Assembly (NCBI GenBank): GCA_043228905.1
Contig: JBHGNT010000661.1
Location: 1-18,151, forward strand
From: Azolla caroliniana
Lineage: Eukaryota; Plantae; Polypodiophyta
Length of the DNA: 18,151 nt
Direction: 5' to 3'
The position numbers were made by a program, and so were the translations under genes. The notes under the pieces are model-generated. The model did no database searches, was not told where the DNA came from, and saw only the letters and a list, made by a program, of their open reading frames with translations. Below, piece after piece: positions 1 to 18,151 of the stretch; position 1 is the first letter of the stretch, and each line of letters opens with the position of its first letter.

Positions 1-234
1 TACGCGCACGCGCGAGTGCGCACATTTACCTATGTATGTATAAATGTTATGTTGCTCGACAAGCTCTCGCGCGAGGAGGAGGAGTACCCGCTACAGGTTG
101 CGCCCAGATTGTCTGGTGACAATACGACACCTAGGACTAGCCTAGACGTGTGGGAGGGTGGACTAGTTGGTATGGGTCTTGGGCAAGAGTTGTACGCAGG
201 ACACACACGTTATGGTAATGGGAGTGGTGAGTGA

Positions 235-276
235 CATGCATGTGCTCTGATTGCATGGCCATGTGTATATATTAAA
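235..276 (+). promoter_or_regulatory. Core promoter of copy 1: two RY elements plus TATA box
   Basis: CATGCATG at 235-242, TGCATG at 252-257 and TATATATTAAA at 266-276, the last starting 77 bp before the ATG at 343. Confidence 0.75.
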
Positions 277-342
277 GGTGGAGGGAGCAATGTCAATACA
301 ATCCATTAGGAGACAAGCACCGGGATCATAAGGACAATCGCA

Positions 343-1103
343 ATGGCAAAGCTTACTTCCGTATTCCTCATGGCCGTGATCATGCTCGCCGCGTGTACCG
401 CGGCCAATGCTAGGTCTGTAGGGCGGGACCGTGAAGAGGAGCGACGCGATCGACGTCGTGAGGGAGACATTGACGAGGAGAGGCGCGATCGACGCCGAGA
501 GGGGGAGTGCGATGACGAGAGGCGCGAGCGACGTCGTGAGGGGTTCCTTGAGGAGGGGCGCCGCTACAGAGACAACAAGAGAAGCCGTGGTCGCGATGAG
601 CCACGTGGACGAGGAAACTGAGGCGAGAGTGCGGTGATTTCATCGACAAGCAGATCCGAGAGCTACAAGAGCGCTCCGAAAGAGAGGAAGGTGAACAAGG
701 ACGTCGCTCCCCATGGATCGAAAACACTCGATACTCAAGACCCTCGGAACGGTGCTGCAGGAACGTCGAACGAATCCCCGCCGAAGATCGATGCGATCGC
801 CTACGTGATGCCTTGTATGCTGACGAGGAGGAACGACGCAATGATGAAGGCCGACGCCATGGCCAACAATCAAGGGAACACCGTAGCTGGGAGGAAGAGG
901 ACGAGGAGCGCGAGAGAGATAGCAGCCGTGAGCGACGAGAGGGTGACGAACGCCGCCACCGCATGTCTCGACGACAAGAGGACGAACGTCAACAACGTCG
1001 CCAATTCAAGGCCGATGACGAGGAAAGAGCTCTAGGCGTCGCCGCCTCCCGCCTACTCCAACAGTGCGATCTTCGCCCTCGTGCTTGTATTCGTCGCTTC
1101 TAA
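343..1103 (+). pseudogene. Frameshifted copy of the 2S-albumin-like storage protein gene (or a local sequence error)
   Basis: Compared with copy 2 it has a 27-bp deletion at 582/583 (removes DSEEERERR), an extra G at 607-608 and an extra A at 615-617. These give a premature TGA at 619-621 (92 aa). The downstream sequence matches the intact copies through TAA at 1101-1103. Confidence 0.75.
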
Positions 1104-1170
1104 ATAGTACATAAACCTTGTTCAAATTATTCTCGTGGTCTCTCTCTAATTTCTCGTAAGTGTTTACGAA
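1104..1170 (+). terminator. Probable short 3' UTR / polyadenylation region (representative)
   Basis: AT/pyrimidine-rich stretch directly after TAA, with an AATAAA-like CATAAA at 1110-1115 and T-rich tracts downstream. There is no canonical AATAAA. Confidence 0.35.
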
Positions 1171-1202
1171 CAAGTGCGTCTCCCCAATCGCGCATTACAC
1201 CC

Positions 1203-1264
1203 ACACGAACGTAAACACGAGCACCAACGTCCCTCCAACACGAACGTAAACACGAGCACCAACG
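1203..1264 (+). repeat. Perfect 27-bp direct repeat, 2 copies with period 35, downstream of the stop codon (representative, present in every unit)
   Basis: ACACGAACGTAAACACGAGCACCAACG at 1203-1229 and 1238-1264, separated by TCCCTCCA. Confidence 0.95.
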
Positions 1265-1611
1265 CATAGAATTTGCCTATAGGGACCGCAAACCACCCAA
1301 ACGGAAAAAAAAACATCAAAGCAGGACACCCATACCGCACACGCCACGGCAACGGCTAAGGCTAAGGTCAACTTGTACACGCGGCGAATGTGAACTTGCT
1401 TCCACACTTGCCCGATAGGACACTCCTAGTGTGGTAGTCCGGTTAGCTTTCCTTGTCGTCGTCGTTACCAACCCCTCGTCCGTCCGAACGAGCGAGTACG
1501 GACACCGGTCTATCTACGTTCATCGATGTAGCACACTCGGGAGCCACCACTCGTCCCGCAGTAGCCTCCGCGTGCTTAGTGTCTCGGCACTAGCGCGTTC
1601 TAGTTTAATGT

Positions 1612-1841
1612 GCACGTGCCCGCACACCCCTACGCGCACGCGCGAGTGCGCACATTTACCTATGTATGTATAAATGTTATGTTGCTCGACAAGCTCTCGC
1701 GCGAGGAGGAGGAGTACCCGCTACAGGTTGCGCCCAGATTGTCTGGTGACAATACGACACCTAGGACTAGCCTAGACGTGTGGGAGGGTGGACTAGTTGG
1801 TATGGGTCTTGGGCAAGAGTTGTACGCAGGACACACACGTT
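1612..1841. promoter_or_regulatory. Upstream G-box/ABRE-like ACGT elements (representative, present in every unit)
   Basis: Palindromic GCACGTGC at 1612-1619, GACGTGT at 1775-1781 and ACACGT at 1835-1840 (ACGTGT on the minus strand). bZIP-type sites typically partner RY elements. The motifs are short, so individually weak. Confidence 0.5.
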
Positions 1842-1864
1842 ATGGTAATGGGAGTGGTGAGTGA

Positions 1865-1906
1865 CATGCATGTGCTCTGATTGCATGGCCATGTGTATAT
1901 ATTAAA
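1865..1906 (+). promoter_or_regulatory. Core promoter, representative (copy 2): RY/Sph elements plus TATA box. The same module lies at 3520-3561, 5175-5216, 6830-6871, 8485-8526, 10140-10181, 11795-11836, 13450-13491, 15105-15146 and 16760-16801.
   Basis: CATGCATG at 1865-1872, TGCATG (CATGCA on the minus strand) at 1882-1887 and TATATATTAAA at 1896-1906. RY is the established binding site of the B3 factors ABI3/FUS3/LEC2 in storage-protein promoters. Confidence 0.75.
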
Positions 1907-1972
1907 GGTGGAGGGAGCAATGTCAATACAATCCATTAGGAGACAAGCACCGGGATCATAAGGACAATCGCA

Positions 1973-2758
1973 ATGGCAAAGCTTACTTCCGTATTCCTCA
2001 TGGCCGTGATCATGCTCGCCGCGTGTACCGCGGCCAATGCTAGGTCTGTAGGGCGGGACCGTGAAGAGGAGCGACGCGATCGACGTCGTGAGGGAGACAT
2101 TGACGAGGAGAGGCGCGATCGACGCCGAGAGGGGGAGTGCGATGACGAGAGGCGCGAGCGACGTCGTGAGGGGTTCCTTGAGGAGGGGCGCCGCTACAGA
2201 GACAACAAGAGAGACTCCGAAGAGGAAAGGGAACGTCGTAGCCGTGGTCGCGATGAGCCACGTGACGAGGAACTGAGGCGAGAGTGCGGTGATTTCATCG
2301 ACAAGCAGATCCGAGAGCTACAAGAGCGCTCCGAAAGAGAGGAAGGTGAACAAGGACGTCGCTCCCCATGGATCGAAAACACTCGATACTCAAGACCCTC
2401 GGAACGGTGCTGCAGGAACGTCGAACGAATCCCCGCCGAAGATCGATGCGATCGCCTACGTGATGCCTTGTATGCTGACGAGGAGGAACGACGCAATGAT
2501 GAAGGCCGACGCCATGGCCAACAATCAAGGGAACACCGTAGCTGGGAGGAAGAGGACGAGGAGCGCGAGAGAGATAGCAGCCGTGAGCGACGAGAGGGTG
2601 ACGAACGCCGCCACCGCATGTCTCGACGACAAGAGGACGAACGTCAACAACGTCGCCAATTCAAGGCCGATGACGAGGAAAGAGCTCTAGGCGTCGCCGC
2701 CTCCCGCCTACTCCAACAGTGCGATCTTCGCCCTCGTGCTTGTATTCGTCGCTTCTAA
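1973..2758 (+). CDS. Arg/Glu-rich 2S albumin-like seed/spore storage protein precursor (prolamin superfamily), copy 2
   Basis: Good plant start context (GCAATGGCA) and a 'MAKL' hydrophobic signal peptide ending ANA (about aa 1-23). Cys pattern C105...C146C147-x9-[D]RC159...LLQQC250-x6-C257. Intronless, with an RY+TATA promoter upstream. Confidence 0.88.
   Translation: MAKLTSVFLMAVIMLAACTAANARSVGRDREEERRDRRREGDIDEERRDRRREGECDDERRERRREGFLEEGRRYRDNKRDSEEERERRSRGRDEPRDEELRRECGDFIDKQIRELQERSEREEGEQGRRSPWIENTRYSRPSERCCRNVERIPAEDRCDRLRDALYADEEERRNDEGRRHGQQSREHRSWEEEDEERERDSSRERREGDERRHRMSRRQEDERQQRRQFKADDEERALGVAASRLLQQCDLRPRACIRRF
2063..2179 (+). repeat. Intragenic 39-bp (13-aa) tandem repeat, 3 copies (representative, present in every copy)
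   Basis: EEERRDRRREGDI / DEERRDRRREGEC / DDERRERRREGFL (aa 31-69), followed by a partial EEGRR. Confidence 0.9.
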
Positions 2759-3627
2759 ATAGTACATAAACCTTGTTCAAATTATTCTCGTGGTCTCTCT
2801 CTAATTTCTCGTAAGTGTTTACGAACAAGTGCGTCTCCCCAATCGCGCATTACACCCACACGAACGTAAACACGAGCACCAACGTCCCTCCAACACGAAC
2901 GTAAACACGAGCACCAACGCATAGAATTTGCCTATAGGGACCGCAAACCACCCAAACGGAAAAAAAAACATCAAAGCAGGACACCCATACCGCACACGCC
3001 ACGGCAACGGCTAAGGCTAAGGTCAACTTGTACACGCGGCGAATGTGAACTTGCTTCCACACTTGCCCGATAGGACACTCCTAGTGTGGTAGTCCGGTTA
3101 GCTTTCCTTGTCGTCGTCGTTACCAACCCCTCGTCCGTCCGAACGAGCGAGTACGGACACCGGTCTATCTACGTTCATCGATGTAGCACACTCGGGAGCC
3201 ACCACTCGTCCCGCAGTAGCCTCCGCGTGCTTAGTGTCTCGGCACTAGCGCGTTCTAGTTTAATGTGCACGTGCCCGCACACCCCTACGCGCACGCGCGA
3301 GTGCGCACATTTACCTATGTATGTATAAATGTTATGTTGCTCGACAAGCTCTCGCGCGAGGAGGAGGAGTACCCGCTACAGGTTGCGCCCAGATTGTCTG
3401 GTGACAATACGACACCTAGGACTAGCCTAGACGTGTGGGAGGGTGGACTAGTTGGTATGGGTCTTGGGCAAGAGTTGTACGCAGGACACACACGTTATGG
3501 TAATGGGAGTGGTGAGTGACATGCATGTGCTCTGATTGCATGGCCATGTGTATATATTAAAGGTGGAGGGAGCAATGTCAATACAATCCATTAGGAGACA
3601 AGCACCGGGATCATAAGGACAATCGCA

Positions 3628-4413
3628 ATGGCAAAGCTTACTTCCGTATTCCTCATGGCCGTGATCATGCTCGCCGCGTGTACCGCGGCCAATGCTAGGT
3701 CTGTAGGGCGGGACCGTGAAGAGGAGCGACGCGATCGACGTCGTGAGGGAGACATTGACGAGGAGAGGCGCGATCGACGCCGAGAGGGGGAGTGCGATGA
3801 CGAGAGGCGCGAGCGACGTCGTGAGGGGTTCCTTGAGGAGGGGCGCCGCTACAGAGACAACAAGAGAGACTCCGAAGAGGAAAGGGAACGTCGTAGCCGT
3901 GGTCGCGATGAGCCACGTGACGAGGAACTGAGGCGAGAGTGCGGTGATTTCATCGACAAGCAGATCCGAGAGCTACAAGAGCGCTCCGAAAGAGAGGAAG
4001 GTGAACAAGGACGTCGCTCCCCATGGATCGAAAACACTCGATACTCAAGACCCTCGGAACGGTGCTGCAGGAACGTCGAACGAATCCCCGCCGAAGATCG
4101 ATGCGATCGCCTACGTGATGCCTTGTATGCTGACGAGGAGGAACGACGCAATGATGAAGGCCGACGCCATGGCCAACAATCAAGGGAACACCGTAGCTGG
4201 GAGGAAGAGGACGAGGAGCGCGAGAGAGATAGCAGCCGTGAGCGACGAGAGGGTGACGAACGCCGCCACCGCATGTCTCGACGACAAGAGGACGAACGTC
4301 AACAACGTCGCCAATTCAAGGCCGATGACGAGGAAAGAGCTCTAGGCGTCGCCGCCTCCCGCCTACTCCAACAGTGCGATCTTCGCCCTCGTGCTTGTAT
4401 TCGTCGCTTCTAA
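3628..4413 (+). CDS. 2S albumin-like storage protein precursor, copy 3
   Basis: Translation identical to copy 2. Confidence 0.88.
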   Translation: MAKLTSVFLMAVIMLAACTAANARSVGRDREEERRDRRREGDIDEERRDRRREGECDDERRERRREGFLEEGRRYRDNKRDSEEERERRSRGRDEPRDEELRRECGDFIDKQIRELQERSEREEGEQGRRSPWIENTRYSRPSERCCRNVERIPAEDRCDRLRDALYADEEERRNDEGRRHGQQSREHRSWEEEDEERERDSSRERREGDERRHRMSRRQEDERQQRRQFKADDEERALGVAASRLLQQCDLRPRACIRRF

Positions 4414-5282
4414 ATAGTACATAAACCTTGTTCAAATTATTCTCGTGGTCTCTCTCTAATTTCTCGTAAGTGTTTACGAACAAGTGCGTCTCCCCAATCG
4501 CGCATTACACCCACACGAACGTAAACACGAGCACCAACGTCCCTCCAACACGAACGTAAACACGAGCACCAACGCATAGAATTTGCCTATAGGGACCGCA
4601 AACCACCCAAACGGAAAAAAAAACATCAAAGCAGGACACCCATACCGCACACGCCACGGCAACGGCTAAGGCTAAGGTCAACTTGTACACGCGGCGAATG
4701 TGAACTTGCTTCCACACTTGCCCGATAGGACACTCCTAGTGTGGTAGTCCGGTTAGCTTTCCTTGTCGTCGTCGTTACCAACCCCTCGTCCGTCCGAACG
4801 AGCGAGTACGGACACCGGTCTATCTACGTTCATCGATGTAGCACACTCGGGAGCCACCACTCGTCCCGCAGTAGCCTCCGCGTGCTTAGTGTCTCGGCAC
4901 TAGCGCGTTCTAGTTTAATGTGCACGTGCCCGCACACCCCTACGCGCACGCGCGAGTGCGCACATTTACCTATGTATGTATAAATGTTATGTTGCTCGAC
5001 AAGCTCTCGCGCGAGGAGGAGGAGTACCCGCTACAGGTTGCGCCCAGATTGTCTGGTGACAATACGACACCTAGGACTAGCCTAGACGTGTGGGAGGGTG
5101 GACTAGTTGGTATGGGTCTTGGGCAAGAGTTGTACGCAGGACACACACGTTATGGTAATGGGAGTGGTGAGTGACATGCATGTGCTCTGATTGCATGGCC
5201 ATGTGTATATATTAAAGGTGGAGGGAGCAATGTCAATACAATCCATTAGGAGACAAGCACCGGGATCATAAGGACAATCGCA

Positions 5283-6068
5283 ATGGCAAAGCTTACTTCC
5301 GTATTCCTCATGGCCGTGATCATGCTCGCCGCGTGTACCGCGGCCAATGCTAGGTCTGTAGGGCGGGACCGTGAAGAGGAGCGACGCGATCGACGTCGTG
5401 AGGGAGACATTGACGAGGAGAGGCGCGATCGACGCCGAGAGGGGGAGTGCGATGACGAGAGGCGCGAGCGACGTCGTGAGGGGTTCCTTGAGGAGGGGCG
5501 CCGCTACAGAGACAACAAGAGAGACTCCGAAGAGGAAAGGGAACGTCGTAGCCGTGGTCGCGATGAGCCACGTGACGAGGAACTGAGGCGAGAGTGCGGT
5601 GATTTCATCGACAAGCAGATCCGAGAGCTACAAGAGCGCTCCGAAAGAGAGGAAGGTGAACAAGGACGTCGCTCCCCATGGATCGAAAACACTCGATACT
5701 CAAGACCCTCGGAACGGTGCTGCAGGAACGTCGAACGAATCCCCGCCGAAGATCGATGCGATCGCCTACGTGATGCCTTGTATGCTGACGAGGAGGAACG
5801 ACGCAATGATGAAGGCCGACGCCATGGCCAACAATCAAGGGAACACCGTAGCTGGGAGGAAGAGGACGAGGAGCGCGAGAGAGATAGCAGCCGTGAGCGA
5901 CGAGAGGGTGACGAACGCCGCCACCGCATGTCTCGACGACAAGAGGACGAACGTCAACAACGTCGCCAATTCAAGGCCGATGACGAGGAAAGAGCTCTAG
6001 GCGTCGCCGCCTCCCGCCTACTCCAACAGTGCGATCTTCGCCCTCGTGCTTGTATTCGTCGCTTCTAA
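5283..6068 (+). CDS. 2S albumin-like storage protein precursor, copy 4
   Basis: Translation identical to copy 2. Confidence 0.88.
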   Translation: MAKLTSVFLMAVIMLAACTAANARSVGRDREEERRDRRREGDIDEERRDRRREGECDDERRERRREGFLEEGRRYRDNKRDSEEERERRSRGRDEPRDEELRRECGDFIDKQIRELQERSEREEGEQGRRSPWIENTRYSRPSERCCRNVERIPAEDRCDRLRDALYADEEERRNDEGRRHGQQSREHRSWEEEDEERERDSSRERREGDERRHRMSRRQEDERQQRRQFKADDEERALGVAASRLLQQCDLRPRACIRRF

Positions 6069-6937
6069 ATAGTACATAAACCTTGTTCAAATTATTCTCG
6101 TGGTCTCTCTCTAATTTCTCGTAAGTGTTTACGAACAAGTGCGTCTCCCCAATCGCGCATTACACCCACACGAACGTAAACACGAGCACCAACGTCCCTC
6201 CAACACGAACGTAAACACGAGCACCAACGCATAGAATTTGCCTATAGGGACCGCAAACCACCCAAACGGAAAAAAAAACATCAAAGCAGGACACCCATAC
6301 CGCACACGCCACGGCAACGGCTAAGGCTAAGGTCAACTTGTACACGCGGCGAATGTGAACTTGCTTCCGCACTTGCCCGATAGGACACTCCTAGTGTGGT
6401 AGTCCGGTTAGCTTTCCTTGTCGTCGTCGTTACCAACCCCTCGTCCGTCCGAACGAGCGAGTACGGACACCGGTCTATCTACGTTCATCGATGTAGCACA
6501 CTCGGGAGCCACCACTCGTCCCGCAGTAGCCTCCGCGTGCTTAGTGTCTCGGCACTAGCGCGTTCTAGTTTAATGTGCACGTGCCCGCACACCCCTACGC
6601 GCACGCGCGAGTGCGCACATTTACCTATGTATGTATAAATGTTATGTTGCTCGACAAGCTCTCGCGCGAGGAGGAGGAGTACCCGCTACAGGTTGCGCCC
6701 AGATTGTCTGGTGACAATACGACACCTAGGACTAGCCTAGACGTGTGGGAGGGTGGACTAGTTGGTATGGGTCTTGGGCAAGAGTTGTACGCAGGACACA
6801 CACGTTATGGTAATGGGAGTGGTGAGTGACATGCATGTGCTCTGATTGCATGGCCATGTGTATATATTAAAGGTGGAGGGAGCAATGTCAATACAATCCA
6901 TTAGGAGACAAGCACCGGGATCATAAGGACAATCGCA

Positions 6938-7723
6938 ATGGCAAAGCTTACTTCCGTATTCCTCATGGCCGTGATCATGCTCGCCGCGTGTACCGCGGCC
7001 AATGCTAGGTCTGTAGGGCGGGACCGTGAAGAGGAGCGACGCGATCGACGTCGTGAGGGAGACATTGACGAGGAGAGGCGCGATCGACGCCGAGAGGGGG
7101 AGTGCGATGACGAGAGGCGCGAGCGACGTCGTGAGGGGTTCCTTGAGGAGGGGCGCCGCTACAGAGACAACAAGAGAGACTCCGAAGAGGAAAGGGAACG
7201 TCGTAGCCGTGGTCGCGATGAGCCACGTGACGAGGAACTGAGGCGAGAGTGCGGTGATTTCATCGACAAGCAGATCCGAGAGCTACAAGAGCGCTCCGAA
7301 AGAGAGGAAGGTGAACAAGGACGTCGCTCCCCATGGATCGAAAACACTCGATACTCAAGACCCTCGGAACGGTGCTGCAGGAACGTCGAACGAATCCCCG
7401 CCGAAGATCGATGCGATCGCCTACGTGATGCCTTGTATGCTGACGAGGAGGAACGACGCAATGATGAAGGCCGACGCCATGGCCAACAATCAAGGGAACA
7501 CCGTAGCTGGGAGGAAGAGGACGAGGAGCGCGAGAGAGATAGCAGCCGTGAGCGACGAGAGGGTGACGAACGCCGCCACCGCATGTCTCGACGACAAGAG
7601 GACGAACGTCAACAACGTCGCCAATTCAAGGCCGATGACGAGGAAAGAGCTCTAGGCGTCGCCGCCTCCCGCCTACTCCAACAGTGCGATCTTCGCCCTC
7701 GTGCTTGTATTCGTCGCTTCTAA
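6938..7723 (+). CDS. 2S albumin-like storage protein precursor, copy 5
   Basis: Translation identical to copy 2. Confidence 0.88.
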   Translation: MAKLTSVFLMAVIMLAACTAANARSVGRDREEERRDRRREGDIDEERRDRRREGECDDERRERRREGFLEEGRRYRDNKRDSEEERERRSRGRDEPRDEELRRECGDFIDKQIRELQERSEREEGEQGRRSPWIENTRYSRPSERCCRNVERIPAEDRCDRLRDALYADEEERRNDEGRRHGQQSREHRSWEEEDEERERDSSRERREGDERRHRMSRRQEDERQQRRQFKADDEERALGVAASRLLQQCDLRPRACIRRF

Positions 7724-8592
7724 ATAGTACATAAACCTTGTTCAAATTATTCTCGTGGTCTCTCTCTAATTTCTCGTAAGTGTTTACGAACAAGTGCGTC
7801 TCCCCAATCGCGCATTACACCCACACGAACGTAAACACGAGCACCAACGTCCCTCCAACACGAACGTAAACACGAGCACCAACGCATAGAATTTGCCTAT
7901 AGGGACCGCAAACCACCCAAACGGAAAAAAAAACATCAAAGCAGGACACCCATACCGCACACGCCACGGCAACGGCTAAGGCTAAGGTCAACTTGTACAC
8001 GCGGCGAATGTGAACTTGCTTCCGCACTTGCCCGATAGGACACTCCTAGTGTGGTAGTCCGGTTAGCTTTCCTTGTCGTCGTCGTTACCAACCCCTCGTC
8101 CGTCCGAACGAGCGAGTACGGACACCGGTCTATCTACGTTCATCGATGTAGCACACTCGGGAGCCACCACTCGTCCCGCAGTAGCCTCCGCGTGCTTAGT
8201 GTCTCGGCACTAGCGCGTTCTAGTTTAATGTGCACGTGCCCGCACACCCCTACGCGCACGCGCGAGTGCGCACATTTACCTATGTATGTATAAATGTTAT
8301 GTTGCTCGACAAGCTCTCGCGCGAGGAGGAGGAGTACCCGCTACAGGTTGCGCCCAGATTGTCTGGTGACAATACGACACCTAGGACTAGCCTAGACGTG
8401 TGGGAGGGTGGACTAGTTGGTATGGGTCTTGGGCAAGAGTTGTACGCAGGACACACACGTTATGGTAATGGGAGTGGTGAGTGACATGCATGTGCTCTGA
8501 TTGCATGGCCATGTGTATATATTAAAGGTGGAGGGAGCAATGTCAATACAATCCATTAGGAGACAAGCACCGGGATCATAAGGACAATCGCA

Positions 8593-9378
8593 ATGGCAAA
8601 GCTTACTTCCGTATTCCTCATGGCCGTGATCATGCTCGCCGCGTGTACCGCGGCCAATGCTAGGTCTGTAGGGCGGGACCGTGAAGAGGAGCGACGCGAT
8701 CGACGTCGTGAGGGAGACATTGACGAGGAGAGGCGCGATCGACGCCGAGAGGGGGAGTGCGATGACGAGAGGCGCGAGCGACGTCGTGAGGGGTTCCTTG
8801 AGGAGGGGCGCCGCTACAGAGACAACAAGAGAGACTCCGAAGAGGAAAGGGAACGTCGTAGCCGTGGTCGCGATGAGCCACGTGACGAGGAACTGAGGCG
8901 AGAGTGCGGTGATTTCATCGACAAGCAGATCCGAGAGCTACAAGAGCGCTCCGAAAGAGAGGAAGGTGAACAAGGACGTCGCTCCCCATGGATCGAAAAC
9001 ACTCGATACTCAAGACCCTCGGAACGGTGCTGCAGGAACGTCGAACGAATCCCCGCCGAAGATCGATGCGATCGCCTACGTGATGCCTTGTATGCTGACG
9101 AGGAGGAACGACGCAATGATGAAGGCCGACGCCATGGCCAACAATCAAGGGAACACCGTAGCTGGGAGGAAGAGGACGAGGAGCGCGAGAGAGATAGCAG
9201 CCGTGAGCGACGAGAGGGTGACGAACGCCGCCACCGCATGTCTCGACGACAAGAGGACGAACGTCAACAACGTCGCCAATTCAAGGCCGATGACGAGGAA
9301 AGAGCTCTAGGCGTCGCCGCCTCCCGCCTACTCCAACAGTGCGATCTTCGCCCTCGTGCTTGTATTCGTCGCTTCTAA
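8593..9378 (+). CDS. 2S albumin-like storage protein precursor, copy 6
   Basis: Translation identical to copy 2. Confidence 0.88.
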   Translation: MAKLTSVFLMAVIMLAACTAANARSVGRDREEERRDRRREGDIDEERRDRRREGECDDERRERRREGFLEEGRRYRDNKRDSEEERERRSRGRDEPRDEELRRECGDFIDKQIRELQERSEREEGEQGRRSPWIENTRYSRPSERCCRNVERIPAEDRCDRLRDALYADEEERRNDEGRRHGQQSREHRSWEEEDEERERDSSRERREGDERRHRMSRRQEDERQQRRQFKADDEERALGVAASRLLQQCDLRPRACIRRF

Positions 9379-10247
9379 ATAGTACATAAACCTTGTTCAA
9401 ATTATTCTCGTGGTCTCTCTCTAATTTCTCGTAAGTGTTTACGAACAAGTGCGTCTCCCCAATCGCGCATTACACCCACACGAACGTAAACACGAGCACC
9501 AACGTCCCTCCAACACGAACGTAAACACGAGCACCAACGCATAGAATTTGCCTATAGGGACCGCAAACCACCCAAACGGAAAAAAAAACATCAAAGCAGG
9601 ACACCCATACCGCACACGCCACGGCAACGGCTAAGGCTAAGGTCAACTTGTACACGCGGCGAATGTGAACTTGCTTCCGCACTTGCCCGATAGGACACTC
9701 CTAGTGTGGTAGTCCGGTTAGCTTTCCTTGTCGTCGTCGTTACCAACCCCTCGTCCGTCCGAACGAGCGAGTACGGACACCGGTCTATCTACGTTCATCG
9801 ATGTAGCACACTCGGGAGCCACCACTCGTCCCGCAGTAGCCTCCGCGTGCTTAGTGTCTCGGCACTAGCGCGTTCTAGTTTAATGTGCACGTGCCCGCAC
9901 ACCCCTACGCGCACGCGCGAGTGCGCACATTTACCTATGTATGTATAAATGTTATGTTGCTCGACAAGCTCTCGCGCGAGGAGGAGGAGTACCCGCTACA
10001 GGTTGCGCCCAGATTGTCTGGTGACAATACGACACCTAGGACTAGCCTAGACGTGTGGGAGGGTGGACTAGTTGGTATGGGTCTTGGGCAAGAGTTGTAC
10101 GCAGGACACACACGTTATGGTAATGGGAGTGGTGAGTGACATGCATGTGCTCTGATTGCATGGCCATGTGTATATATTAAAGGTGGAGGGAGCAATGTCA
10201 ATACAATCCATTAGGAGACAAGCACCGGGATCATAAGGACAATCGCA

Positions 10248-11033
10248 ATGGCAAAGCTTACTTCCGTATTCCTCATGGCCGTGATCATGCTCGCCGCGTG
10301 TACCGCGGCCAATGCTAGGTCTGTAGGGCGGGACCGTGAAGAGGAGCGACGCGATCGACGTCGTGAGGGAGACATTGACGAGGAGAGGCGCGATCGACGC
10401 CGAGAGGGGGAGTGCGATGACGAGAGGCGCGAGCGACGTCGTGAGGGGTTCCTTGAGGAGGGGCGCCGCTACAGAGACAACAAGAGAGACTCCGAAGAGG
10501 AAAGGGAACGTCGTAGCCGTGGTCGCGATGAGCCACGTGACGAGGAACTGAGGCGAGAGTGCGGTGATTTCATCGACAAGCAGATCCGAGAGCTACAAGA
10601 GCGCTCCGAAAGAGAGGAAGGTGAACAAGGACGTCGCTCCCCATGGATCGAAAACACTCGATACTCAAGACCCTCGGAACGGTGCTGCAGGAACGTCGAA
10701 CGAATCCCCGCCGAAGATCGATGCGATCGCCTACGTGATGCCTTGTATGCTGACGAGGAGGAACGACGCAATGATGAAGGCCGACGCCATGGCCAACAAT
10801 CAAGGGAACACCGTAGCTGGGAGGAAGAGGACGAGGAGCGCGAGAGAGATAGCAGCCGTGAGCGACGAGAGGGTGACGAACGCCGCCACCGCATGTCTCG
10901 ACGACAAGAGGACGAACGTCAACAACGTCGCCAATTCAAGGCCGATGACGAGGAAAGAGCTCTAGGCGTCGCCGCCTCCCGCCTACTCCAACAGTGCGAT
11001 CTTCGCCCTCGTGCTTGTATTCGTCGCTTCTAA
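10248..11033 (+). CDS. 2S albumin-like storage protein precursor, copy 7
   Basis: Translation identical to copy 2. Confidence 0.88.
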   Translation: MAKLTSVFLMAVIMLAACTAANARSVGRDREEERRDRRREGDIDEERRDRRREGECDDERRERRREGFLEEGRRYRDNKRDSEEERERRSRGRDEPRDEELRRECGDFIDKQIRELQERSEREEGEQGRRSPWIENTRYSRPSERCCRNVERIPAEDRCDRLRDALYADEEERRNDEGRRHGQQSREHRSWEEEDEERERDSSRERREGDERRHRMSRRQEDERQQRRQFKADDEERALGVAASRLLQQCDLRPRACIRRF

Positions 11034-11902
11034 ATAGTACATAAACCTTGTTCAAATTATTCTCGTGGTCTCTCTCTAATTTCTCGTAAGTGTTTACGAA
11101 CAAGTGCGTCTCCCCAATCGCGCATTACACCCACACGAACGTAAACACGAGCACCAACGTCCCTCCAACACGAACGTAAACACGAGCACCAACGCATAGA
11201 ATTTGCCTATAGGGACCGCAAACCACCCAAACGGAAAAAAAAACATCAAAGCAGGACACCCATACCGCACACGCCACGGCAACGGCTAAGGCTAAGGTCA
11301 ACTTGTACACGCGGCGAATGTGAACTTGCTTCCACACTTGCCCGATAGGACACTCCTAGTGTGGTAGTCCGGTTAGCTTTCCTTGTCGTCGTCGTTACCA
11401 ACCCCTCGTCCGTCCGAACGAGCGAGTACGGACACCGGTCTATCTACGTTCATCGATGTAGCACACTCGGGAGCCACCACTCGTCCCGCAGTAGCCTCCG
11501 CGTGCTTAGTGTCTCGGCACTAGCGCGTTCTAGTTTAATGTGCACGTGCCCGCACACCCCTACGCGCACGCGCGAGTGCGCACATTTACCTATGTATGTA
11601 TAAATGTTATGTTGCTCGACAAGCTCTCGCGCGAGGAGGAGGAGTACCCGCTACAGGTTGCGCCCAGATTGTCTGGTGACAATACGACACCTAGGACTAG
11701 CCTAGACGTGTGGGAGGGTGGACTAGTTGGTATGGGTCTTGGGCAAGAGTTGTACGCAGGACACACACGTTATGGTAATGGGAGTGGTGAGTGACATGCA
11801 TGTGCTCTGATTGCATGGCCATGTGTATATATTAAAGGTGGAGGGAGCAATGTCAATACAATCCATTAGGAGACAAGCACCGGGATCATAAGGACAATCG
11901 CA

Positions 11903-12688
11903 ATGGCAAAGCTTACTTCCGTATTCCTCATGGCCGTGATCATGCTCGCCGCGTGTACCGCGGCCAATGCTAGGTCTGTAGGGCGGGACCGTGAAGAGGA
12001 GCGACGCGATCGACGTCGTGAGGGAGACATTGACGAGGAGAGGCGCGATCGACGCCGAGAGGGGGAGTGCGATGACGAGAGGCGCGAGCGACGTCGTGAG
12101 GGGTTCCTTGAGGAGGGGCGCCGCTACAGAGACAACAAGAGAGACTCCGAAGAGGAAAGGGAACGTCGTAGCCGTGGTCGCGATGAGCCACGTGACGAGG
12201 AACTGAGGCGAGAGTGCGGTGATTTCATCGACAAGCAGATCCGAGAGCTACAAGAGCGCTCCGAAAGAGAGGAAGGTGAACAAGGACGTCGCTCCCCATG
12301 GATCGAAAACACTCGATACTCAAGACCCTCGGAACGGTGCTGCAGGAACGTCGAACGAATCCCCGCCGAAGATCGATGCGATCGCCTACGTGATGCCTTG
12401 TATGCTGACGAGGAGGAACGACGCAATGATGAAGGCCGACGCCATGGCCAACAATCAAGGGAACACCGTAGCTGGGAGGAAGAGGACGAGGAGCGCGAGA
12501 GAGATAGCAGCCGTGAGCGACGAGAGGGTGACGAACGCCGCCACCGCATGTCTCGACGACAAGAGGACGAACGTCAACAACGTCGCCAATTCAAGGCCGA
12601 TGACGAGGAAAGAGCTCTAGGCGTCGCCGCCTCCCGCCTACTCCAACAGTGCGATCTTCGCCCTCGTGCTTGTATTCGTCGCTTCTAA
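11903..12688 (+). CDS. 2S albumin-like storage protein precursor, copy 8
   Basis: Translation identical to copy 2. Confidence 0.88.
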   Translation: MAKLTSVFLMAVIMLAACTAANARSVGRDREEERRDRRREGDIDEERRDRRREGECDDERRERRREGFLEEGRRYRDNKRDSEEERERRSRGRDEPRDEELRRECGDFIDKQIRELQERSEREEGEQGRRSPWIENTRYSRPSERCCRNVERIPAEDRCDRLRDALYADEEERRNDEGRRHGQQSREHRSWEEEDEERERDSSRERREGDERRHRMSRRQEDERQQRRQFKADDEERALGVAASRLLQQCDLRPRACIRRF

Positions 12689-13557
12689 ATAGTACATAAA
12701 CCTTGTTCAAATTATTCTCGTGGTCTCTCTCTAATTTCTCGTAAGTGTTTACGAACAAGTGCGTCTCCCCAATCGCGCATTACACCCACACGAACGTAAA
12801 CACGAGCACCAACGTCCCTCCAACACGAACGTAAACACGAGCACCAACGCATAGAATTTGCCTATAGGGACCGCAAACCACCCAAACGGAAAAAAAAACA
12901 TCAAAGCAGGACACCCATACCGCACACGCCACGGCAACGGCTAAGGCTAAGGTCAACTTGTACACGCGGCGAATGTGAACTTGCTTCCACACTTGCCCGA
13001 TAGGACACTCCTAGTGTGGTAGTCCGGTTAGCTTTCCTTGTCGTCGTCGTTACCAACCCCTCGTCCGTCCGAACGAGCGAGTACGGACACCGGTCTATCT
13101 ACGTTCATCGATGTAGCACACTCGGGAGCCACCACTCGTCCCGCAGTAGCCTCCGCGTGCTTAGTGTCTCGGCACTAGCGCGTTCTAGTTTAATGTGCAC
13201 GTGCCCGCACACCCCTACGCGCACGCGCGAGTGCGCACATTTACCTATGTATGTATAAATGTTATGTTGCTCGACAAGCTCTCGCGCGAGGAGGAGGAGT
13301 ACCCGCTACAGGTTGCGCCCAGATTGTCTGGTGACAATACGACACCTAGGACTAGCCTAGACGTGTGGGAGGGTGGACTAGTTGGTATGGGTCTTGGGCA
13401 AGAGTTGTACGCAGGACACACACGTTATGGTAATGGGAGTGGTGAGTGACATGCATGTGCTCTGATTGCATGGCCATGTGTATATATTAAAGGTGGAGGG
13501 AGCAATGTCAATACAATCCATTAGGAGACAAGCACCGGGATCATAAGGACAATCGCA

Positions 13558-14343
13558 ATGGCAAAGCTTACTTCCGTATTCCTCATGGCCGTGATCATGC
13601 TCGCCGCGTGTACCGCGGCCAATGCTAGGTCTGTAGGGCGGGACCGTGAAGAGGAGCGACGCGATCGACGTCGTGAGGGAGACATTGACGAGGAGAGGCG
13701 CGATCGACGCCGAGAGGGGGAGTGCGATGACGAGAGGCGCGAGCGACGTCGTGAGGGGTTCCTTGAGGAGGGGCGCCGCTACAGAGACAACAAGAGAGAC
13801 TCCGAAGAGGAAAGGGAACGTCGTAGCCGTGGTCGCGATGAGCCACGTGACGAGGAACTGAGGCGAGAGTGCGGTGATTTCATCGACAAGCAGATCCGAG
13901 AGCTACAAGAGCGCTCCGAAAGAGAGGAAGGTGAACAAGGACGTCGCTCCCCATGGATCGAAAACACTCGATACTCAAGACCCTCGGAACGGTGCTGCAG
14001 GAACGTCGAACGAATCCCCGCCGAAGATCGATGCGATCGCCTACGTGATGCCTTGTATGCTGACGAGGAGGAACGACGCAATGATGAAGGCCGACGCCAT
14101 GGCCAACAATCAAGGGAACACCGTAGCTGGGAGGAAGAGGACGAGGAGCGCGAGAGAGATAGCAGCCGTGAGCGACGAGAGGGTGACGAACGCCGCCACC
14201 GCATGTCTCGACGACAAGAGGACGAACGTCAACAACGTCGCCAATTCAAGGCCGATGACGAGGAAAGAGCTCTAGGCGTCGCCGCCTCCCGCCTACTCCA
14301 ACAGTGCGATCTTCGCCCTCGTGCTTGTATTCGTCGCTTCTAA
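13558..14343 (+). CDS. 2S albumin-like storage protein precursor, copy 9
   Basis: Translation identical to copy 2. Confidence 0.88.
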   Translation: MAKLTSVFLMAVIMLAACTAANARSVGRDREEERRDRRREGDIDEERRDRRREGECDDERRERRREGFLEEGRRYRDNKRDSEEERERRSRGRDEPRDEELRRECGDFIDKQIRELQERSEREEGEQGRRSPWIENTRYSRPSERCCRNVERIPAEDRCDRLRDALYADEEERRNDEGRRHGQQSREHRSWEEEDEERERDSSRERREGDERRHRMSRRQEDERQQRRQFKADDEERALGVAASRLLQQCDLRPRACIRRF

Positions 14344-15212
14344 ATAGTACATAAACCTTGTTCAAATTATTCTCGTGGTCTCTCTCTAATTTCTCGTAAG
14401 TGTTTACGAACAAGTGCGTCTCCCCAATCGCGCATTACACCCACACGAACGTAAACACGAGCACCAACGTCCCTCCAACACGAACGTAAACACGAGCACC
14501 AACGCATAGAATTTGCCTATAGGGACCGCAAACCACCCAAACGGAAAAAAAAACATCAAAGCAGGACACCCATACCGCACACGCCACGGCAACGGCTAAG
14601 GCTAAGGTCAACTTGTACACGCGGCGAATGTGAACTTGCTTCCACACTTGCCCGATAGGACACTCCTAGTGTGGTAGTCCGGTTAGCTTTCCTTGTCGTC
14701 GTCGTTACCAACCCCTCGTCCGTCCGAACGAGCGAGTACGGACACCGGTCTATCTACGTTCATCGATGTAGCACACTCGGGAGCCACCACTCGTCCCGCA
14801 GTAGCCTCCGCGTGCTTAGTGTCTCGGCACTAGCGCGTTCTAGTTTAATGTGCACGTGCCCGCACACCCCTACGCGCACGCGCGAGTGCGCACATTTACC
14901 TATGTATGTATAAATGTTATGTTGCTCGACAAGCTCTCGCGCGAGGAGGAGGAGTACCCGCTACAGGTTGCGCCCAGATTGTCTGGTGACAATACGACAC
15001 CTAGGACTAGCCTAGACGTGTGGGAGGGTGGACTAGTTGGTATGGGTCTTGGGCAAGAGTTGTACGCAGGACACACACGTTATGGTAATGGGAGTGGTGA
15101 GTGACATGCATGTGCTCTGATTGCATGGCCATGTGTATATATTAAAGGTGGAGGGAGCAATGTCAATACAATCCATTAGGAGACAAGCACCGGGATCATA
15201 AGGACAATCGCA

Positions 15213-15998
15213 ATGGCAAAGCTTACTTCCGTATTCCTCATGGCCGTGATCATGCTCGCCGCGTGTACCGCGGCCAATGCTAGGTCTGTAGGGCGGGACC
15301 GTGAAGAGGAGCGACGCGATCGACGTCGTGAGGGAGACATTGACGAGGAGAGGCGCGATCGACGCCGAGAGGGGGAGTGCGATGACGAGAGGCGCGAGCG
15401 ACGTCGTGAGGGGTTCCTTGAGGAGGGGCGCCGCTACAGAGACAACAAGAGAGACTCCGAAGAGGAAAGGGAACGTCGTAGCCGTGGTCGCGATGAGCCA
15501 CGTGACGAGGAACTGAGGCGAGAGTGCGGTGATTTCATCGACAAGCAGATCCGAGAGCTACAAGAGCGCTCCGAAAGAGAGGAAGGTGAACAAGGACGTC
15601 GCTCCCCATGGATCGAAAACACTCGATACTCAAGACCCTCGGAACGGTGCTGCAGGAACGTCGAACGAATCCCCGCCGAAGATCGATGCGATCGCCTACG
15701 TGATGCCTTGTATGCTGACGAGGAGGAACGACGCAATGATGAAGGCCGACGCCATGGCCAACAATCAAGGGAACACCGTAGCTGGGAGGAAGAGGACGAG
15801 GAGCGCGAGAGAGATAGCAGCCGTGAGCGACGAGAGGGTGACGAACGCCGCCACCGCATGTCTCGACGACAAGAGGACGAACGTCAACAACGTCGCCAAT
15901 TCAAGGCCGATGACGAGGAAAGAGCTCTAGGCGTCGCCGCCTCCCGCCTACTCCAACAGTGCGATCTTCGCCCTCGTGCTTGTATTCGTCGCTTCTAA
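15213..15998 (+). CDS. 2S albumin-like storage protein precursor, copy 10
   Basis: Translation identical to copy 2. Confidence 0.88.
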   Translation: MAKLTSVFLMAVIMLAACTAANARSVGRDREEERRDRRREGDIDEERRDRRREGECDDERRERRREGFLEEGRRYRDNKRDSEEERERRSRGRDEPRDEELRRECGDFIDKQIRELQERSEREEGEQGRRSPWIENTRYSRPSERCCRNVERIPAEDRCDRLRDALYADEEERRNDEGRRHGQQSREHRSWEEEDEERERDSSRERREGDERRHRMSRRQEDERQQRRQFKADDEERALGVAASRLLQQCDLRPRACIRRF

Positions 15999-16867
15999 AT
16001 AGTACATAAACCTTGTTCAAATTATTCTCGTGGTCTCTCTCTAATTTCTCGTAAGTGTTTACGAACAAGTGCGTCTCCCCAATCGCGCATTACACCCACA
16101 CGAACGTAAACACGAGCACCAACGTCCCTCCAACACGAACGTAAACACGAGCACCAACGCATAGAATTTGCCTATAGGGACCGCAAACCACCCAAACGGA
16201 AAAAAAAACATCAAAGCAGGACACCCATACCGCACACGCCACGGCAACGGCTAAGGCTAAGGTCAACTTGTACACGCGGCGAATGTGAACTTGCTTCCAC
16301 ACTTGCCCGATAGGACACTCCTAGTGTGGTAGTCCGGTTAGCTTTCCTTGTCGTCGTCGTTACCAACCCCTCGTCCGTCCGAACGAGCGAGTACGGACAC
16401 CGGTCTATCTACGTTCATCGATGTAGCACACTCGGGAGCCACCACTCGTCCCGCAGTAGCCTCCGCGTGCTTAGTGTCTCGGCACTAGCGCGTTCTAGTT
16501 TAATGTGCACGTGCCCGCACACCCCTACGCGCACGCGCGAGTGCGCACATTTACCTATGTATGTATAAATGTTATGTTGCTCGACAAGCTCTCGCGCGAG
16601 GAGGAGGAGTACCCGCTACAGGTTGCGCCCAGATTGTCTGGTGACAATACGACACCTAGGACTAGCCTAGACGTGTGGGAGGGTGGACTAGTTGGTATGG
16701 GTCTTGGGCAAGAGTTGTACGCAGGACACACACGTTATGGTAATGGGAGTGGTGAGTGACATGCATGTGCTCTGATTGCATGGCCATGTGTATATATTAA
16801 AGGTGGAGGGAGCAATGTCAATACAATCCATTAGGAGACAAGCACCGGGATCATAAGGACAATCGCA

Positions 16868-17653
16868 ATGGCAAAGCTTACTTCCGTATTCCTCATGGCC
16901 GTGATCATGCTCGCCGCGTGTACCGCGGCCAATGCTAGGTCTGTAGGGCGGGACCGTGAAGAGGAGCGACGCGATCGACGTCGTGAGGGAGACATTGACG
17001 AGGAGAGGCGCGATCGACGCCGAGAGGGGGAGTGCGATGACGAGAGGCGCGAGCGACGTCGTGAGGGGTTCCTTGAGGAGGGGCGCCGCTACAGAGACAA
17101 CAAGAGAGACTCCGAAGAGGAAAGGGAACGTCGTAGCCGTGGTCGCGATGAGCCACGTGACGAGGAACTGAGGCGAGAGTGCGGTGATTTCATCGACAAG
17201 CAGATCCGAGAGCTACAAGAGCGCTCCGAAAGAGAGGAAGGTGAACAAGGACGTCGCTCCCCATGGATCGAAAACACTCGATACTCAAGACCCTCGGAAC
17301 GGTGCTGCAGGAACGTCGAACGAATCCCCGCCGAAGATCGATGCGATCGCCTACGTGATGCCTTGTATGCTGACGAGGAGGAACGACGCAATGATGAAGG
17401 CCGACGCCATGGCCAACAATCAAGGGAACACCGTAGCTGGGAGGAAGAGGACGAGGAGCGCGAGAGAGATAGCAGCCGTGAGCGACGAGAGGGTGACGAA
17501 CGCCGCCACCGCATGTCTCGACGACAAGAGGACGAACGTCAACAACGTCGCCAATTCAAGGCCGATGACGAGGAAAGAGCTCTAGGCGTCGCCGCCTCCC
17601 GCCTACTCCAACAGTGCGATCTTCGCCCTCGTGCTTGTATTCGTCGCTTCTAA
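16868..17653 (+). CDS. 2S albumin-like storage protein precursor, copy 11
   Basis: Translation identical to copy 2. Confidence 0.88.
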   Translation: MAKLTSVFLMAVIMLAACTAANARSVGRDREEERRDRRREGDIDEERRDRRREGECDDERRERRREGFLEEGRRYRDNKRDSEEERERRSRGRDEPRDEELRRECGDFIDKQIRELQERSEREEGEQGRRSPWIENTRYSRPSERCCRNVERIPAEDRCDRLRDALYADEEERRNDEGRRHGQQSREHRSWEEEDEERERDSSRERREGDERRHRMSRRQEDERQQRRQFKADDEERALGVAASRLLQQCDLRPRACIRRF

Positions 17654-18151
17654 ATAGTACATAAACCTTGTTCAAATTATTCTCGTGGTCTCTCTCTAAT
17701 TTCTCGTAAGTGTTTACGAACAAGTGCGTCTCCCCAATCGCGCATTACACCCACACGAACGTAAACACGAGCACCAACGTCCCTCCAACACGAACGTAAA
17801 CACGAGCACCAACGCATAGAATTTGCCTATAGGGACCGCAAACCACCCAAACGGAAAAAAAAACATCAAAGCAGGACACCCATACCGCACACGCCACGGC
17901 AACGGCTAAGGCTAAGGTCAACTTGTACACGCGGCGAATGTGAACTTGCTTCCGCACTTGCCCGATAGGACACTCCTAGTGTGGTAGTCCGGTTAGCTTT
18001 CCTTGTCGTCGTCGTTACCAACCCCTCGTCCGTCCGAACGAGCGAGTACGGACACCGGTCTATCTACGTTCATCGATGTAGCACACTCGGGAGCCACCAC
18101 TCGTCCCGCAGTAGCCTCCGCGTGCTTAGTGTCTCGGCACTAGCGCGTTCT

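Follow-up and report, generated by a model that had tools for sequence, protein, structure and literature searches.

A head-to-tail array of a 2S-albumin-like gene in the fern Azolla caroliniana, with concerted evolution resembling that of ribosomal DNA and a likely high copy number

Contig JBHGNT010000661.1 of the Azolla caroliniana assembly GCA_043228905.1 (positions 1 to 18,151 of the forward strand; this whole 18,151-bp stretch is referred to here as the window) consists of a head-to-tail array of a fern gene encoding an arginine-rich, six-cysteine, 2S-albumin-like protein. The array is real and not an assembly artefact, because the joint between consecutive units was recovered in all six of the DNA or unlabelled sequencing runs compared, at a depth about 120–840 times (medians) that of diverged look-alike contigs. 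We consider it probable that the array comprises hundreds of copies, that it evolves in the concerted style of ribosomal DNA (rDNA) and that it serves to load spores with nitrogen. The locus is best described as a real, selected and concertedly evolving array of a fern-type gene with a likely rDNA-like copy number, whose product is predicted from its sequence to be a storage protein.

Structure of the array

The initial annotation of this DNA described at least 11 units of 1,655 bp, each with a 786-bp coding sequence (CDS) and an 869-bp spacer, that differ among units 2–11 at a single site, spacer included, and are uninterrupted by transposon insertions; comparison of the units bore out each of these statements. 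The array and its gene copies are as follows.

1..18151, + strand: eleven units repeated head to tail with a period of 1,655 bp; the window contains neither end of the array
1631..3285, + strand: reference unit (unit 2), GC content 52% in the spacer and 59% in the CDS
1973..2758, + strand: intron-free CDS, a single 786-bp open reading frame (ORF) for a 261-aa protein, 2S-albumin-like by Pfam (PF00234)
3628-4413, 5283-6068, 6938-7723, 8593-9378, 10248-11033, 11903-12688, 13558-14343, 15213-15998, 16868-17653, + strand: identical CDS copies
343..621, + strand: frameshifted CDS of unit 1, with 27 bp missing after 582 and extra bases at 607 and 615
3059 (then 4714 ... 17954), no strand: sole variable site among units 2–11, A/G, unit position 1429

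The units start at positions 1, 1631, 3286, 4941, 6596, 8251, 9906, 11561, 13216, 14871 and 16526. Units 2–10 are 1,655 bp each, unit 1 is 1,630 bp and unit 11 is 29 bp short at the window end. From unit 1 to unit 11 the base at unit position 1429 reads A A A G G G A A A A G (G in units 4, 5, 6 and 11); among units 2–11, six carry A and four carry G, the two being interspersed without significant clustering along the array (p 0.14), and pairwise diversity among these ten units is 0.0003 per site. The same 261-aa protein is encoded by 10 of the 11 units, and no insertion breaks any of them.

The defect in unit 1 went undescribed in the initial sequence reading. Its two single-base insertions each double the neighbouring base, and the frame stops at 92 aa. 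These changes are absent among the indel rows listed for the eight sequencing runs described below; an error in the reads or consensus at the edge of the window likely explains the frameshift, though unit 1 may be a rare dead copy.

Recovery of the array in independent sequencing data

The unit or part of it was present in 20 of 24 listed sequencing runs, with at least half of its words in 18 of them, across 14 studies; two of the listed runs are flagged as possible sources of the window itself. Eight of the 24 were compared with the unit, namely X1, X3, X10, X13, X14 and X16 (DNA or unlabelled) and X19 and X20 (RNA-labelled), with contigs from a relative placed on the window only at 80% likeness or more. 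The joint from unit end to unit start (3285 to 1631) had a depth of 910 in X1, 14 in X3, 7,474 in X13, 12,619 in X16, 580 in X10 and 5,595 in X14, and was also found in three separate metagenome assemblies. In X1 the entire unit formed one 1,685-bp contig (1,655 + 30) with a single difference from the window. The initial annotation had named single-copy depth or a concatemer artefact as the outcomes that would count against the array, and neither was seen in these six runs.

Median ratios of main-unit depth to that of diverged look-alike contigs were 119 in X1 (1 contig), 174 in X10 (2), 310 in X14 (6), 837 in X13 (5) and 844 in X16 (8); X3 was too shallow to be included. Single ratios, taken against the low-depth diverged contigs among those listed, span 119–1,439. 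These values suggest hundreds of copies, an estimate from contig depth without a verified single-copy baseline.

In X16 we also noted spacer variants at 2920 and 2964 and indels at 1702, 1828, 2981 and 3009, all at substantial depth and absent from the 11 units of the window, from which the array likely contains regional sub-families. A second family, about 84–88% alike over the N-terminal part of the gene (window 1990–2270), occurred in X1, X10, X13, X14 and X16 and in both RNA-labelled runs (X19 and X20), with depths relative to the main unit of 324 vs 910 in X1, 1,057 vs 580 in X10 and about 3,700–4,650 vs 4,300–5,600 in X14. This more diverged family is likely a second array. The proteins P0008 and P0017–P0021 are tied to this observation, and C-termini of the P0008 type (67–70% identical) may belong to it.

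Related arrays and concerted evolution

A metagenome scan confirmed four of 187 candidate stretches (L001–L004). L001 is the same unit as in the window; L003 closes on itself with a unit of 1,857 bp; and L002 begins in the 3′ half of a gene and continues across the spacer into the next, giving a unit of about 1,730 bp. Assembler coverage in the names of these three is 441–657. L002 and L003 are either arrays of sister species or paralogous arrays.

Synonymous divergence (dS) between the CDS of the window and those of L002 and L003 was 0.185 and 0.152, with ratios of non-synonymous to synonymous divergence (dN/dS) of 0.12 and 0.17, respectively, and the comparison of L002 with L003 gave a dS of 0.208 and a dN/dS of 0.13. 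Purifying selection was evident in all three comparisons (Fisher p 3.6e-7 or lower), dN/dS was 0.08 in the Arg/Glu extension, and the CDS comparison between arrays gave no sign of diversifying selection. Spacers were about 78–83% alike between arrays (aligned columns, with large gaps) vs 95% for the CDS.

As in rDNA, units are arranged head to tail, each with a gene and a spacer; divergence is 0.0003 per site inside the window vs a dS of 0.15–0.21 between arrays; and the spacer changes faster than the gene and changes in length (1,655, about 1,730 and 1,857 bp per unit). A spacer variant, 2964 A>G, accounts for all of the depth in X1 and for 8,216 of 34,400 in X16 and is absent in X3, X13 and the window. 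Because the arrays are uniform inside yet different between samples, we conclude that they have undergone long-standing concerted evolution under purifying selection; and since a spacer variant fixed in one run is missing from others, variants would spread through the array by unequal exchange and gene conversion. A single recent burst of amplification was rejected as the whole story, since the sister arrays have diverged in both dS and spacer sequence. The initial annotation had likened the array to rDNA and its gene to storage-protein genes, leaving a choice between very recent amplification and ongoing concerted evolution; the likenesses held, and the diverged sister arrays favour the latter process over a single recent amplification.

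L003-like contigs occurred beside the main unit in three of the six DNA or unlabelled runs, at depths of 4.5–8 vs 14 in X3 and about 2,400–2,900 vs 7,420 in X13, and also in X10; they were absent among the listed rows of X1, X14 and X16. This variant may come from hybridisation, from mixing of samples or from a third array that is polymorphic, and may be useful as a species or hybrid marker. In L004 (coverage 332 by its name), positions 1–1317 hold a gene 3′ end and the start of a spacer, followed by sequence of 34% GC unlike the array, so that L004 is possibly an array end or a long-unit variant.

A 5S- or tRNA-linked repeat was rejected because an Rfam search over 1600–5000 found no RNA gene and ARAGORN found nothing on L001–L004. 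A scan for bacterial promoters gave one site vs 0.7 expected and is irrelevant to this plant array.

The encoded protein and its relatives

Protein features of the reference unit are as follows.

1973..2041, + strand: putative signal peptide, residues 1–23, a hydrophobic stretch judged by eye
2057..2173, + strand: three Arg/Glu/Asp repeats of 39 nt (13 aa) within the N-terminal extension
2285..2743, + strand: six conserved cysteines, C105, C146, C147, C159, C250 and C257, corresponding to motif C2, C3C4, C6, C7 and C8

The signal-peptide region has no amino-acid change relative to L002 and L003. After residue 23 the protein has a mass of 29.8 kDa, a pI of 6.0 and a composition of 28.6% Arg, 20.6% Glu and 10.5% Asp, so that these three residues make up 60% of the proprotein and nitrogen 22% of its mass; nitrogen per residue is 1.97 vs 1.68–1.72 in three shorter fern-type relatives. 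A long Arg/Glu insert, whose length varies freely between arrays, separates C159 from C250. A further cysteine, C56, is not conserved and is Tyr in L002 and L003.

The protein matches PF00234 at 21.7 bits, exactly the gathering cut-off (E 2.5e-4), which places it in the prolamin superfamily; four of six relatives scanned pass at 31.7–35.7 bits, and P0011 and L003 fall slightly under. A Conotoxin match in Pfam was rejected because it is under the cut-off (E 0.06) and covers the signal peptide. With a profile of ten family members, the best match in the PDB was the Moringa seed protein Mo-CBP4 (E 0.0018), spanning C2–C8. The end of the small chain of Mo-CBP4 matches the 2S albumin of PMC4366206.

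A profile search for relatives returned 11, of which the only named ones were two clusters from Adiantum capillus-veneris (E 2e-4 and 5e-4). Single-sequence homology searches gave one and two unnamed matches, Adiantum being reached by the profile search only, and a region search gave none of nine. The Adiantum relatives (GOP47_0008549, 0011519/20, 0011524/25, 0011995/96 and 0030837) are hypothetical proteins of 128–132 aa that have the six-cysteine pattern and an invariant C-terminal motif in common with the window protein. They lie on scaffolds of 164–170 Mb. Three pairs of neighbouring locus tags encode identical proteins, so that homogenised tandem copies may be more widespread among ferns. 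Since the named relatives are fern proteins, spores rather than seeds are the likely sink for the product.

The initial annotation had identified the gene as that of a 2S albumin storage protein; the likeness stands and the canonical class does not. Intron-free tandem genes are a feature of 2S albumins (PMC4366206), and each gene here is a single 786-bp ORF. The canonical eight-cysteine motif, C..C../..CC..CxC..C..C, is represented by six conserved cysteines: cysteine 1 is not conserved and the position of cysteine 5 is Asp or Glu. The disulfides of 2S albumins join cysteines 1–5, 2–3, 4–7 and 6–8 (PMC2570561), and because C1 and C5 form one pair, exactly one disulfide is absent. The proprotein, inflated by Arg and Glu to about 30 kDa, also exceeds the 2S albumin precursor range of about 18–21 kDa (PMC2570561). 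On these sequence features we class the protein as a six-cysteine, 2S-albumin-like member of the prolamin superfamily and not as a canonical 2S albumin.

Among the other relatives, P0001 (190 aa) has many Arg replaced by Cys, His or Gln and a change of frame in its C-terminal half, and looks like a CpG-decayed dispersed copy. P0011 and P0012 are unnamed proteins with the conserved six-cysteine core, one long and rich in Glu, Arg and His (246 aa) and the other short (130 aa), and are further fern-type family members. A 61-aa ORF in the spacer is taken to be a by-product because the spacer aligns with frame-breaking gaps, and shifted and antisense ORFs were also taken as by-products.

Promoter, spacer and transcription

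1865..1907, + strand: proximal promoter block, with RY-like elements at 1865-1872 and 1882-1887 and a TATA-like box from 1896
2759..3627, + strand: 869-bp spacer, comprising the 3′ region, a 30-nt sub-repeat at 2855-2919 and the promoter of the next gene; poor in CHG, without CpG depletion

The RY-like elements and TATA-like box occupy the interval from 108 to 66 bp upstream of the ATG, an arrangement found in seed-storage promoters, where the RY motif, as defined there and used here, stands close upstream of TATA (PMC2770497). The block is present in L001, L002 and L003 (L004 lacks that part) and is conserved, in contrast to a mid-spacer that hardly aligns. Depletion of CHG and CWG sites is strong in the CDS and in all three spacers (window 2759–3627, L002 322–1172 and L003 1100–1857; z -4.1 to -6.4, with CHG in the spacers at -4.5 to -6.4), with none in the AT-rich tail of L004; the ratio of observed to expected CpG is 1.0–1.45, that is, not decayed.

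In the RNA-labelled runs X19 and X20, which come from a relative, L002-like contigs cover 1959–2763 only, with no cover at 1855–1910, where L002 and L003 are alike to the window at 48 and 50 of 56 positions. This gene-body-only cover is a weak hint of a stage-specific transcript, and the summed depths of the two runs are about a thousandfold apart. The lack of RNA contigs over the mid-spacer carries no weight, since the spacer of the relative falls short of the 80% threshold; 1855–1910 is the only informative interval. None of the 24 listed runs is an RNA run with the organism label of the window, and that is evidence in neither direction.

Proposed explanation and alternatives

Each unit would be its own transcription unit, activated through the conserved RY and TATA block by an ABI3-type B3 factor. 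The protein would enter the endoplasmic reticulum, form three disulfides (C105–C146, C147–C250 and C159–C257) and be stored in protein vacuoles, with Arg/Glu inserts that bring nitrogen to 22% while leaving the charge nearly balanced. Fern spores are single haploid cells, and gene dosage for nitrogen storage would itself be the selected trait, because one spore nucleus must presumably supply the reserve: template number would limit output in that single cell, whereas a seed shares the task among many. Fern spores are known to contain 2S albumins (PMC4973428, citing matteuccin).

Several observations weigh against this explanation. The array was seen in contigs alone, without a chromosomal junction; contig depth is not copy number, and the low-depth contigs used for comparison may be multi-copy or rare variants and so provide no true single-copy baseline. 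The Pfam score of the window protein is at the cut-off and that of L003 is under it (19.3). In two AlphaFold models, considered with regard to the compact five-helix fold of canonical 2S albumins, the cysteine core has a predicted local confidence (pLDDT) under 50, with predicted template modelling (pTM) scores of 0.27 and 0.36 and long low-information helices; Foldseek with the low-confidence model gave no match; and atlas scores of 0.76–0.82 are leads only. Asn136, a candidate site for the cleavage into small and large chains that canonical 2S albumins undergo, is not conserved in Adiantum. That X19 and X20 are RNA is a guess, and both runs come from one study with another organism label. 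The closest PDB matches include defence proteins, and the CHG depletion could record long-term repeat-type methylation, in which case many copies may be silent.

The last of these observations belongs to an alternative that we regard as unlikely, though the least so of those considered, in which the array is over-amplified like a satellite, with a few active genes and most copies hitch-hiking through gene conversion as methylated, silent repeats. CHG methylation marks repeats in the fern Ceratopteris (PMC9477723), CHG and CWG are depleted in the spacers of all three arrays, and the relative depth of the array families varies between runs. Silent repeats do not readily account for a dN/dS of 0.12–0.17 between arrays and 0.08 in the Arg/Glu extension, for 10 of 11 intact copies, for CpG ratios of 1.0–1.45, or for a promoter block kept beside a mid-spacer that is barely alignable. 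It is improbable, too, that the array is real and active with a product that is mainly a defence protein, such as an antifungal or a protease or amylase inhibitor. The best solved relatives do include the chitin-binding Mo-CBP4 and cereal amylase/trypsin inhibitors, and 2S albumins can be antifungal (PMC2570561, PMC4366206); against this stand the preponderance of Arg, Glu and Asp, the excess of nitrogen per residue over the shorter relatives, an insert free to vary in length, the RY promoter and the lack of any sign of diversifying selection.

That the unit is mainly extrachromosomal or somatically amplified, as extrachromosomal circular DNA or by rolling-circle replication, and the window a concatemer of it, seems more improbable still. 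Contigs cannot separate a circle from a tandem array, X1 yielded one closed 1,685-bp contig and the window contains no flank; yet two variants are interspersed along the window, unlike the product of one circle, depth is high in leaf DNA of many samples, the unit has no replication gene and no relative among viral contigs or prokaryote genomes, and the Adiantum copies lie on scaffolds of 164–170 Mb. The unit contains one conserved ORF and no replication or transposition gene, and among viral contigs and prokaryote genomes none of 8 and none of 127 candidate stretches was confirmed as a relative; on these grounds a virus, plasmid or transposon unit was rejected. Hardly credible is an assembly or amplification artefact in which a collapsed or looping assembly repeated one gene: near-perfect identity, the error-like indels of unit 1 and the absence of flanks would fit it, but not the joint in six of six DNA or unlabelled runs and three metagenome assemblies at a depth well beyond that of other homologous contigs. 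Even so, the exact number of units in the window, and their order, may owe something to the assembler.

Beyond the reading of the window as a concertedly evolving storage-gene array, we advance a broader proposition tentatively, thinking it somewhat more apt to fail than to hold: that ferns provision single-nucleus spores by heritable rDNA-scale amplification, with at least two families of a fern-specific six-cysteine, 2S-albumin-like gene, each of hundreds to more than 1,000 active copies (about a megabase) and kept uniform through concerted evolution across species, the tandem habit being common to Adiantum, and with collapsed assemblies explaining scores of zero 2S albumins.

Significance

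A 2023 survey found no seed storage genes in earlier plant forms and assigns their origin to seed plants (PMC10006428); in its Supplementary Data 7 the 2S albumin count over 19 genomes is 0–21, and 0 for Azolla filiculoides. If confirmed, the array would contradict this scoring of no storage genes in seed-free plants, and its 1.66-kb protein-coding unit would be a compact model for measuring concerted evolution alongside purifying selection by dN/dS, which is impossible with rDNA. Biochemistry has recognised 2S-type spore reserves in ferns since matteuccin, and these genes likely provide the sequences behind them. With the RY promoter conserved, one can also test directly whether the seed-maturation programme arose from spore maturation. 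Full-text searching, with most subscription journals outside its reach, found no report of the array, and the word 'albumin' occurs zero times in the main text of four fern papers, PMC6786969, PMC12400808, PMC8386757 and PMC9477723, whose supplements may list the gene.

Comparison with known systems

The 2S albumins (Moringa Mo-CBP3/Mo-CBP4 and napin; PMC2570561, PMC4366206) resemble the window protein in the putative signal peptide, the CC doublet with its flanking motifs, intron-free tandem genes, polar-rich composition and an RY-type promoter. The window protein differs in having six motif cysteines rather than eight (C1 and C5 absent), a 30-kDa proprotein vs 18–21 kDa and 29% Arg, and in likely hundreds of near-identical genes vs the published range per genome (PMC10006428). 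Ostrich fern spores store a 2.2S protein, matteuccin (Rodin and Rask 1990, cited in PMC4973428), which by its description is a 2S-albumin-like reserve and likely of the same functional class; the citing passage mentions no gene array. The Adiantum proteins lack the long Arg/Glu inserts and have eight annotated genes.

Clustered multi-copy storage genes of the same superfamily are found at the rye omega-secalin locus (Sec-1) and in cereal prolamin clusters (PMC3273464, PMC8035075), with about 15 omega-secalin copies reported (PMC3273464) and about 12 Mb and seven active genes at Sec-1 in one assembly (PMC8035075); in Cycas, vicilin-like genes form a tandem array (PMC9023351). Unlike Sec-1, the window unit is just 1.66 kb and nearly invariant. 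The 45S and 5S rDNA and the histone arrays of animals consist of head-to-tail gene and spacer units at high copy number, uniform within an array, with spacers that contain sub-repeats and diverge between lineages. The window array is like them in its uniform gene–spacer units, diverging spacers and sub-repeats, and differs from rDNA in that Rfam found no RNA gene and its cargo is one secreted protein gene, likely transcribed by polymerase II and likely stage-specific. In land plants, protein-coding genes are rarely maintained with the copy number and uniformity of rDNA.

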